A stretch of DNA of 64,000 nt from Escherichia coli. GTDB taxonomy: Bacteria > Pseudomonadota > Gammaproteobacteria > Enterobacterales > Enterobacteriaceae. The DNA lies in the NCBI RefSeq assembly GCF_050920415.1, contig NZ_CP169309.1; one strand, given 5' to 3'. Under the pieces are notes generated by a model, which searched no databases, was not told the DNA's origin, and saw only the letters and a list, made by a program, of their open reading frames with translations. The position numbers and the translations under genes are program-made. Shown here piece after piece: positions 6,801 to 7,061 of this stretch (position 1 is its first letter; each line of letters starts with the position of its first letter).

Positions 6801-7061
6801 AATTCCATGAATACTGTGGTATGTCTTATTAATCCTGAAAGTATTTCATAGGTTTTCTTAATCGATTGTAGAGGTATGTTCTGATAACGCCTCTACAATC
6901 TCTAGGGATTTTGTCTACTTTGAGATAAGAAATTTCATATTATGCCTTAAGGCTGAATGATTTGTGCAAAATATAATTGTTTTTCCATCGAACATGAGGT
7001 GTATGTCATAAGATTAAATATTAACTACGTATTCCTCGCAGTGAATAGCATGAGGTAAAAA

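Follow-up and report, generated by a model that had tools for sequence, protein, structure and literature searches.

The window, by which we mean the whole 64,000-nucleotide stretch of Escherichia coli DNA analysed here, carries a yhiL-like gene at 5193–6800 and, downstream on the same (+) strand, a yhiJ-like gene at 7062–8684. The first is intact and encodes a protein of 535 aa with DUF6860 and DUF4049 domains (Pfam), the second a protein of 540 aa with DUF4049 (Pfam). With this domain in both and 36% identity between them, the two proteins are paralogs, as an earlier reading made from the letters of the window (hereafter the sequence-only reading) had supposed. The pair occupies the position of yhiL and yhiJ in K-12, where yhiL is a frameshifted pseudogene, and in strain MFDS1022581, which is 100% identical here, both open reading frames are annotated as DUF4049 and lie between yhiM and yhiY/yhiI. 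Annotations of yhiL as frameshifted or interrupted are found in L002, L012, L014, L015 and L019, which comprise K-12 and other strains, several of them unrelated.

Both genes lie in an island (~5000–9000) with a GC content of 32–38%, as against about 55% in its flanks. The version in the window is a rare divergent allele: the spacer between the two genes is at least 99% identical in 17–18 of 5426 complete genomes and 88–94% identical in the others, and the YhiJ of the window shares 87% identity with the common E. coli YhiJ. About 1250 complete E. coli genomes are without the island, and the YhiJ family, judging from sequence comparison, appears confined to Escherichia. Both DUF4049 proteins contain a GDxxGDR...GNHE pattern reminiscent of metallophosphatases; no solved structure has a sequence match to the DUF4049 proteins of the window, and residues 288–339 of YhiJ show a weak, sub-threshold match to the Wip family of Legionella Dot/Icm effectors (E 0.002).

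A probable sigma-70 promoter for yhiJ is located at 6947–6977 (+ strand) and consists of TTAAGG (6947–6952), a 19-nt spacer and TATAAT (6972–6977). It is the only good −10/−35 pair before yhiJ, and K-12 reads TTGAGG-19-TATAAT. Both a constitutive RpoD promoter, given as TTGACG-19-TATAAT, and H-NS binding have been published for the yhiL–yhiJ spacer (Shimada et al. 2014, PMC3946193), and we infer that this RpoD promoter is the 6947–6977 element. The spacer has its longest invariant runs close to it (6950–6978, the longest of all, 6921–6945 and 6994–7014).

The inverted repeat and its distribution

Between the two genes, at 6864–6900, the + strand reads GATTGTAGAGG-TATGTTCTGATAACG-CCTCTACAATC, that is, a 5′ arm of 11 nt (6864–6874), a loop of 15 nt (6875–6889) and a 3′ arm of 11 nt (6890–6900), the arms being 100% complementary in a repeat search. 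Since the TAA of the yhiL open reading frame occupies 6798–6800, the dyad starts 64 nt past the last base of the stop codon and so falls in the yhiL 3′ UTR. It ends ~80 nt before the likely yhiJ promoter, and its centre (6882) precedes the expected start site by ~100 nt. The 10 nt directly 3′ of the stem, TCTAGGGATT, contain no T-run, and there is no A-tract in the upstream flank, TTTTCTTAATC. The sequence-only reading had thus described the dyad accurately in every detail: its coordinates, perfect 11-bp arms and 15-nt loop, its 64-nt distance from the yhiL stop and the missing T-run were all reproduced. The GC content is 41% overall, and the stem base is AT-rich. Position 6875 lies opposite G6889 and is a C in most E. 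coli, which turns the dyad into a perfect repeat of 12 bp around a loop of 13 nt; the T of the window allele gives a U-G wobble in RNA instead. The other 13 nt of the loop are unpaired or weakly paired.

No open reading frame of at least 20 aa spans the dyad. The loop contains a 2-codon open reading frame, ATG TTC TGA (6876–6884), 1 base after the GAGG of the 5′ arm, which is probably coincidental because its ATG is absent from TUM10828-type alleles.

How widespread is the dyad? Of 5426 complete E. coli genomes, 4170 contain a match to a 66-nt query around it, always at a single place and never on a plasmid, while the yhiJ 5′ region is present in 4173. Practically all complete E. coli genomes with yhiJ hence have the dyad, and the conservation in other strains that had been proposed as a check is borne out. 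Single-copy and present wherever the island is, it therefore accompanies the island and is no dispersed repeat. REP, ERIC and MITE elements and an IS end are excluded as identities for a dyad that is single-copy per genome and confined to the locus. An Rfam 15 covariance scan of 6000–8000, with E values up to 10, returned only chance-level snoRNA matches (E>2), none of them at the dyad.

The gapped dyad pattern has one copy in the window and none in 100 shuffles. As a chance model for repeats of this kind we used first-order Markov simulations of the 64-kb window and counted inverted repeats with perfect arms of 11 bp or more and a loop of 3–30 nt. The simulations gave a mean of 0.5 such repeats and at least one in 30% of runs, so that a lone one within 64 kb is unremarkable. 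The real window has seven, 14 times the chance number, which means that most of the seven are not due to chance; by arithmetic from the simulation, chance accounts for ~7% of them, and the expectation within the 261-nt spacer is ~0.002.

The six other perfect repeats of at least 11 bp are at 3707–3742, 24743–24767, 28222–28253, 32456–32492, 51180–51211 and 60105–60139. Two have the look of canonical terminators: 3707–3742 (AAAACCAGCGT...ACGCTGGTTTT), between yhiN and yhiM, has a GC-rich stem and a T-run, and 51180–51211 a GC-rich stem followed by TTTTG. Those at 32456–32492 (12 bp) and 60105–60139 are without a T-run.

Variation within E. coli and beyond

Among 15 aligned E. coli alleles, drawn from every identity class of genome matches, the 5′ arm was invariant in all and both arms were unchanged in 14; the sole change in the 3′ arm was 6893 C>T in strain C6. 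The loop is polymorphic at 6875 (C/T; T in the window and strain S43 within this set), 6878 (G/A), 6880 (T/A/G) and 6886 (G/A). A metagenome scan anchored on the flanks of the dyad yielded 90 contigs in 11 haplotypes, all with the 37-nt interval. Stem variants in these contigs were 6875 C/T (21 contigs), 6893 C>T (3) and 6891 C>T (1), together with 6868 G>A and 6868 G>T, two singletons that are both the only changes in the 5′ arm and the sole ones to break a pair. The stem variants seen more than once, at 6875 and 6893, are C-to-U changes that keep a G-U pair in the + strand RNA, as does 6891 C>T in its one contig. In the − strand RNA the 6875 and 6893 variants produce an A-C mismatch, and in DNA they break the symmetry. 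Small as the numbers are, this pattern points to an RNA of the sense strand.

Conservation of the arms as such is less telling. Across the 15 alleles, 1 of 22 arm positions is variable as compared to 35 of 224 spacer positions outside the arms (Fisher p = 0.22), and in 82 full-length contigs the diversity is 0.0066 in the arms and 0.041 in the remaining spacer. The latter difference has a permutation P of 0.019 against random sites, yet among contiguous spacer blocks of the same shape 10.6% vary as little, and the arms do not clearly appear more conserved than the remaining spacer.

Escherichia albertii (L008) is the only outgroup with the locus, and its YhiJ is 57% identical to the window protein. 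It has retained the flanks CTTAATCGAT and TTAGG around a dyad interior that has diverged: in the same register 7 of the 11 pairs are still present, two of these seven with changes on both sides. No stable hairpin is predicted at this position in E. albertii (−10 kcal/mol, z = 0).

The rare lineage L010 (L010:3275-3842, GCA_910664965.1) has lost ~1 kb, corresponding to window positions 5868–6902. The deletion removes the 3′ part of yhiL along with the 5′ arm and loop of the dyad, and it occurred between the imperfect direct repeats CTATAC/CTCTAC (microhomology), the right-hand repeat and junction being inside the 3′ arm. In this lineage yhiJ and its 160-nt upstream region are intact. Losing half of the dyad with the end of yhiL while keeping yhiJ ties the dyad to yhiL and not to the expression of yhiJ. 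On account of this deletion and of the divergence in E. albertii, we regard the perfect hairpin as a feature of E. coli that belongs with the yhiL side of the spacer and is dispensable for an intact yhiJ. L010 had also been considered an independent lineage whose basal stem covaries (GATGG/CTATC), but it is a deletion according to both blastn and the sequence itself, and the covariation argument was dropped because the apparent arm is internal yhiL sequence at the junction. RNAalifold on E. coli, E. albertii and L010 gave a positive, i.e. unfavourable, covariation term.

These data bear on the possibility that the dyad acts as DNA, either as an operator where a dimeric regulator, bound to both 11-bp half-sites, would control the yhiJ promoter ~100 bp downstream, or as a nucleation or boundary site for H-NS. 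Perfect dyad symmetry upstream of a promoter would suit such a role, genomic SELEX shows binding of H-NS and of RNA polymerase holoenzymes to the spacer, and yhiJ and yhiL are on SOS-regulon lists. However, the half-sites are 26 bp apart from centre to centre (2.5 helical turns) and so face opposite sides of the helix, the 64-kb window shows no enrichment of the half-site (14 matches, 11 ± 3 expected), and no E. coli genome has a second copy. Moreover, the common variants 6875 C/T and 6893 C>T sacrifice DNA symmetry and spare RNA pairing, and L010 has lost half of the dyad with yhiJ and its upstream region intact. Because of the SOS lists we also searched for a LexA box (CTGT-N8-ACAG); none overlaps the dyad, and the nearby TACTGT at 6812–6817 is TACGGT in K-12. 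Taken together, we consider a DNA operator quite improbable.

RNA folding and published transcript ends

The + strand RNA of the 37-mer in the window folds at −16.5 kcal/mol (z −6.2), its − strand counterpart at −15.5. The K-12 allele forms a hairpin of −18.3 kcal/mol (z −5.5), and for neither allele does any of 200 shuffles fold equally well. In K-12-type alleles the flanks contribute further helices, giving an imperfect hairpin of ~80 nt (−29.4 kcal/mol, z −4.1). The window allele has the outer helices in weakened form or does not keep them. An inner 3-bp helix within the loop is predicted for the window allele and disrupted in O157-type alleles. A stable fold downstream of a gene and the combination of no U-tract after the stem with no A-tract before it are two features looked for in protective stem-loops, and both are found here, the former with −16.5 kcal/mol in the window and −18.3 in K-12.

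An intercistronic helix of 11–12 bp, embedded in the ~80-nt imperfect hairpin of K-12-type alleles, might also be imagined as an endonucleolytic processing site, for instance for RNase III, that lets the two halves of a yhiL–yhiJ co-transcript decay independently. The perfect helix is short for RNase III, though, and the outer helices that would lengthen it are those not kept in the window allele; besides, no processed ends appear in the Term-seq lists searched, and yhiJ has a promoter of its own. We therefore deem such processing highly improbable.

What do published transcriptomes say about the site? In MG1655 the dyad lies at 3,632,752–3,632,788 on the minus strand. A Rho termination region has been reported there, with its best position, 3,632,784(−), within the 5′ arm (Adams et al. 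2021, PMC7815308, Supplementary file 2). Reads upstream and downstream of this position numbered 73 and 36 without bicyclomycin and 182 and 249 with it, corresponding to a Rho score of 2.77 (p = 5e-6) that is derived from 800-nt windows, few reads and the K-12 allele (PMC7815308). The bicyclomycin-sensitive termination region of K-12 thus peaks within the dyad. According to the authors, processed 3′ ends are closer to such Rho coordinates than termination sites are (PMC7815308). The bicyclomycin signal could equally come from transcription induced at the yhiJ promoter.

The sequence-only reading had put forward 3′-end mapping as a check on the dyad, and here the outcome was negative: the curated Term-seq lists for three growth conditions hold no 3′ end within 3,632,300–3,633,099 (PMC7815308), and there is no entry at the locus in the supplementary data of the SMRT-Cappable-seq and TRS papers that the analysis covered. 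As expression of the locus is low, the missing 3′ end is weak negative evidence. After the stem we found no rut-like enrichment of C over G, the C/G ratio being 0.45–1.22 in 60-nt windows across 6900–7060.

A stable sense-strand hairpin at the place where a terminator is expected, followed in most E. coli by UUU (CAATC-TTTAGGG), raises the possibility of a weak intrinsic (Rho-independent) terminator or attenuator that halts a fraction of the polymerases leaving yhiL. In its position downstream of a gene and its folding energy the dyad is comparable to intrinsic terminators, but it differs from them in most other respects. The 8 nt after the stem contain three Ts in K-12-type alleles and two in the window, where at least five Us in eight would be expected, and in place of a GC-rich stem with a loop of 3–8 nt there is an overall GC content of 41%, an AT-rich stem base and a loop of 13–15 nt. 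A consensus terminator scan is silent at the dyad, though it calls other sites, and the repeats at 3707–3742 and 51180–51211, with their GC-rich stems and T-runs, are the canonical examples that the dyad does not resemble. Readthrough at the dyad, furthermore, appears sensitive to bicyclomycin in K-12. An intrinsic terminator consequently appears improbable to us.

A candidate 3′-protective stem-loop

The stable fold, the place between the yhiL stop codon and the yhiJ promoter and the polymorphisms that keep G-U pairs are the reasons for which we favour a role at the RNA level on the sense strand, and the dyad is most likely an RNA hairpin at the 3′ end of yhiL. More specifically, and tentatively, with confidence that falls somewhat short of even, we propose that it is a U-tract-less stem-loop of the yhiL 3′ UTR that blocks 3′–5′ exonucleases on Rho-terminated yhiL transcripts. 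The + strand stem-loop would form in the yhiL mRNA and would not itself halt RNA polymerase. Rho would end yhiL transcription diffusely, in or past the AT-rich, H-NS-bound spacer, and PNPase and RNase II would then trim the 3′ tail until stopped by the 11–12-bp hairpin. The hairpin would in this way set and protect the 3′ end of yhiL and separate its expression from that of yhiJ with its own promoter ~80 nt downstream. Formation of the hairpin in vivo, a processed 3′ end at its foot and a bearing on the stability of yhiL mRNA are all implied by this proposal and should be read as predictions. Of the three options raised by the sequence-only reading, what the evidence favours is a role in RNA on the sense strand of yhiL. 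The Rho-independent-like attenuator is disfavoured by the absent U-tract, the AT-rich stem base and the 13–15-nt loop, and the protein-binding dyad finds no positive support, with a half-site that is not enriched and recurrent variants that break the symmetry. Nor is there support for an RNA processing site of the RNase III type, for which the Term-seq lists searched show no processed ends, the best fit being 3′-end protection of a Rho-terminated RNA.

Stable stem-loops without a U-tract mark the steady-state 3′ ends of Rho-terminated transcripts, which arise by PNPase and RNase II trimming (Dar & Sorek 2018, PMC6061677). The dyad resembles this class in being a stable hairpin soon after a stop codon with neither a U-tract nor an upstream A-tract, in its location in horizontally acquired DNA that is bound by H-NS, a setting in which Rho often terminates transcription, and perhaps in the apparent bicyclomycin sensitivity of readthrough at the dyad in K-12. 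It differs in having no mapped 3′ end and no downstream excess of C over G, and in a loop of 13–15 nt that is longer than usual.

A further parallel is provided by REP/BIME elements, which are intercistronic mRNA stabilisers, for example in malE-malF, and which PMC6061677 discusses as well. Like them, the dyad is an intercistronic palindrome that would block 3′–5′ exonucleases and favour the upstream cistron; unlike them, it is single-copy, unrelated to REP in sequence and restricted to its locus.

Several findings go against a protective stem-loop. The dyad is retained in K-12 and many other strains in which yhiL is a pseudogene, the two singletons at 6868 break a pair, and E. albertii has no stable hairpin. 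The main and serious rival is that the palindrome has no function, having come about either by chance or when template switching "corrected" a quasi-palindrome, and persisting in a slowly changing spacer. Quasi-palindromes can be perfected by template-switch mutation, and a repeat that is perfect in E. coli but degenerate in the same register in E. albertii, with two pairs changed on both sides, is reminiscent of this process. The degenerate version, with 7 of 11 pairs and no stable fold, is what one would expect of a quasi-palindrome that was only recently perfected. Arms that are not significantly more conserved than the remaining spacer, the ~0.5 such repeats that arise per 64 kb by chance, the want of a mapped 3′ end in the lists searched, the silencing of the island and the frequent decay of yhiL to a pseudogene all fit with a lack of function. 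Against it stand the 14-fold excess of perfect repeats in the window over chance, the ~0.002 expected per 261-nt spacer, the K-12 Rho region peaking inside the dyad and the fact that the recurrent stem variants all keep sense-strand pairing. Template switching, moreover, accounts for origin and not for function, and leaves the bias towards G-U-preserving variants unexplained. Weighing both sides, we see a functionless palindrome as a real possibility that is on balance unlikely.

Extending the proposal of a protective stem-loop, one may ask whether the hairpin has been selected as a cis-acting RNA insulator peculiar to the yhiL–yhiJ island of E. coli. By capping the yhiL mRNA and preventing readthrough from occluding the yhiJ promoter, it would set the relative expression of yhiL and yhiJ, taken here as paralogous and, from their sequences, putatively phosphatase-like DUF4049 genes, once silencing by H-NS and Rho is lifted. 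This extension we hold to be rather doubtful. If protection of the yhiL 3′ end is confirmed, it would add one more U-tract-less 3′ stem-loop to the Rho-dependent transcript ends and give a defined 3′ boundary to yhiL, a functionally uncharacterised gene of a silenced island. The locus could offer a modest model in which to study how expression in AT-rich DNA of horizontal origin is divided up by Rho, H-NS and RNA hairpins. The dyad leaves current understanding unchallenged and carries little weight beyond annotation.

A separate observation concerns the DNA next to yhiJ. The 140–160 nt before the gene (6921–7061) are conserved out to E. albertii, including the blocks ATAAGAAATTTCATATTATG, AAAATATAA, CATAAGAT and ATGAGGTAAA, in contrast to YhiJ itself with its 57% identity to E. 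albertii and to the 3′ coding region of yhiL, which is highly variable among E. coli alleles. Conservation of this upstream DNA alongside a protein of such low identity suggests that the region is a constrained promoter or leader. Within it, the direct repeat CATGAGGT occurs twice, at 6993–7012 and 7049–7056; the first copy opens a 5-codon mini-ORF, ATGAGGTGTATGTCATAA, inside one of the invariant runs, and the second is the Shine-Dalgarno region of yhiJ.
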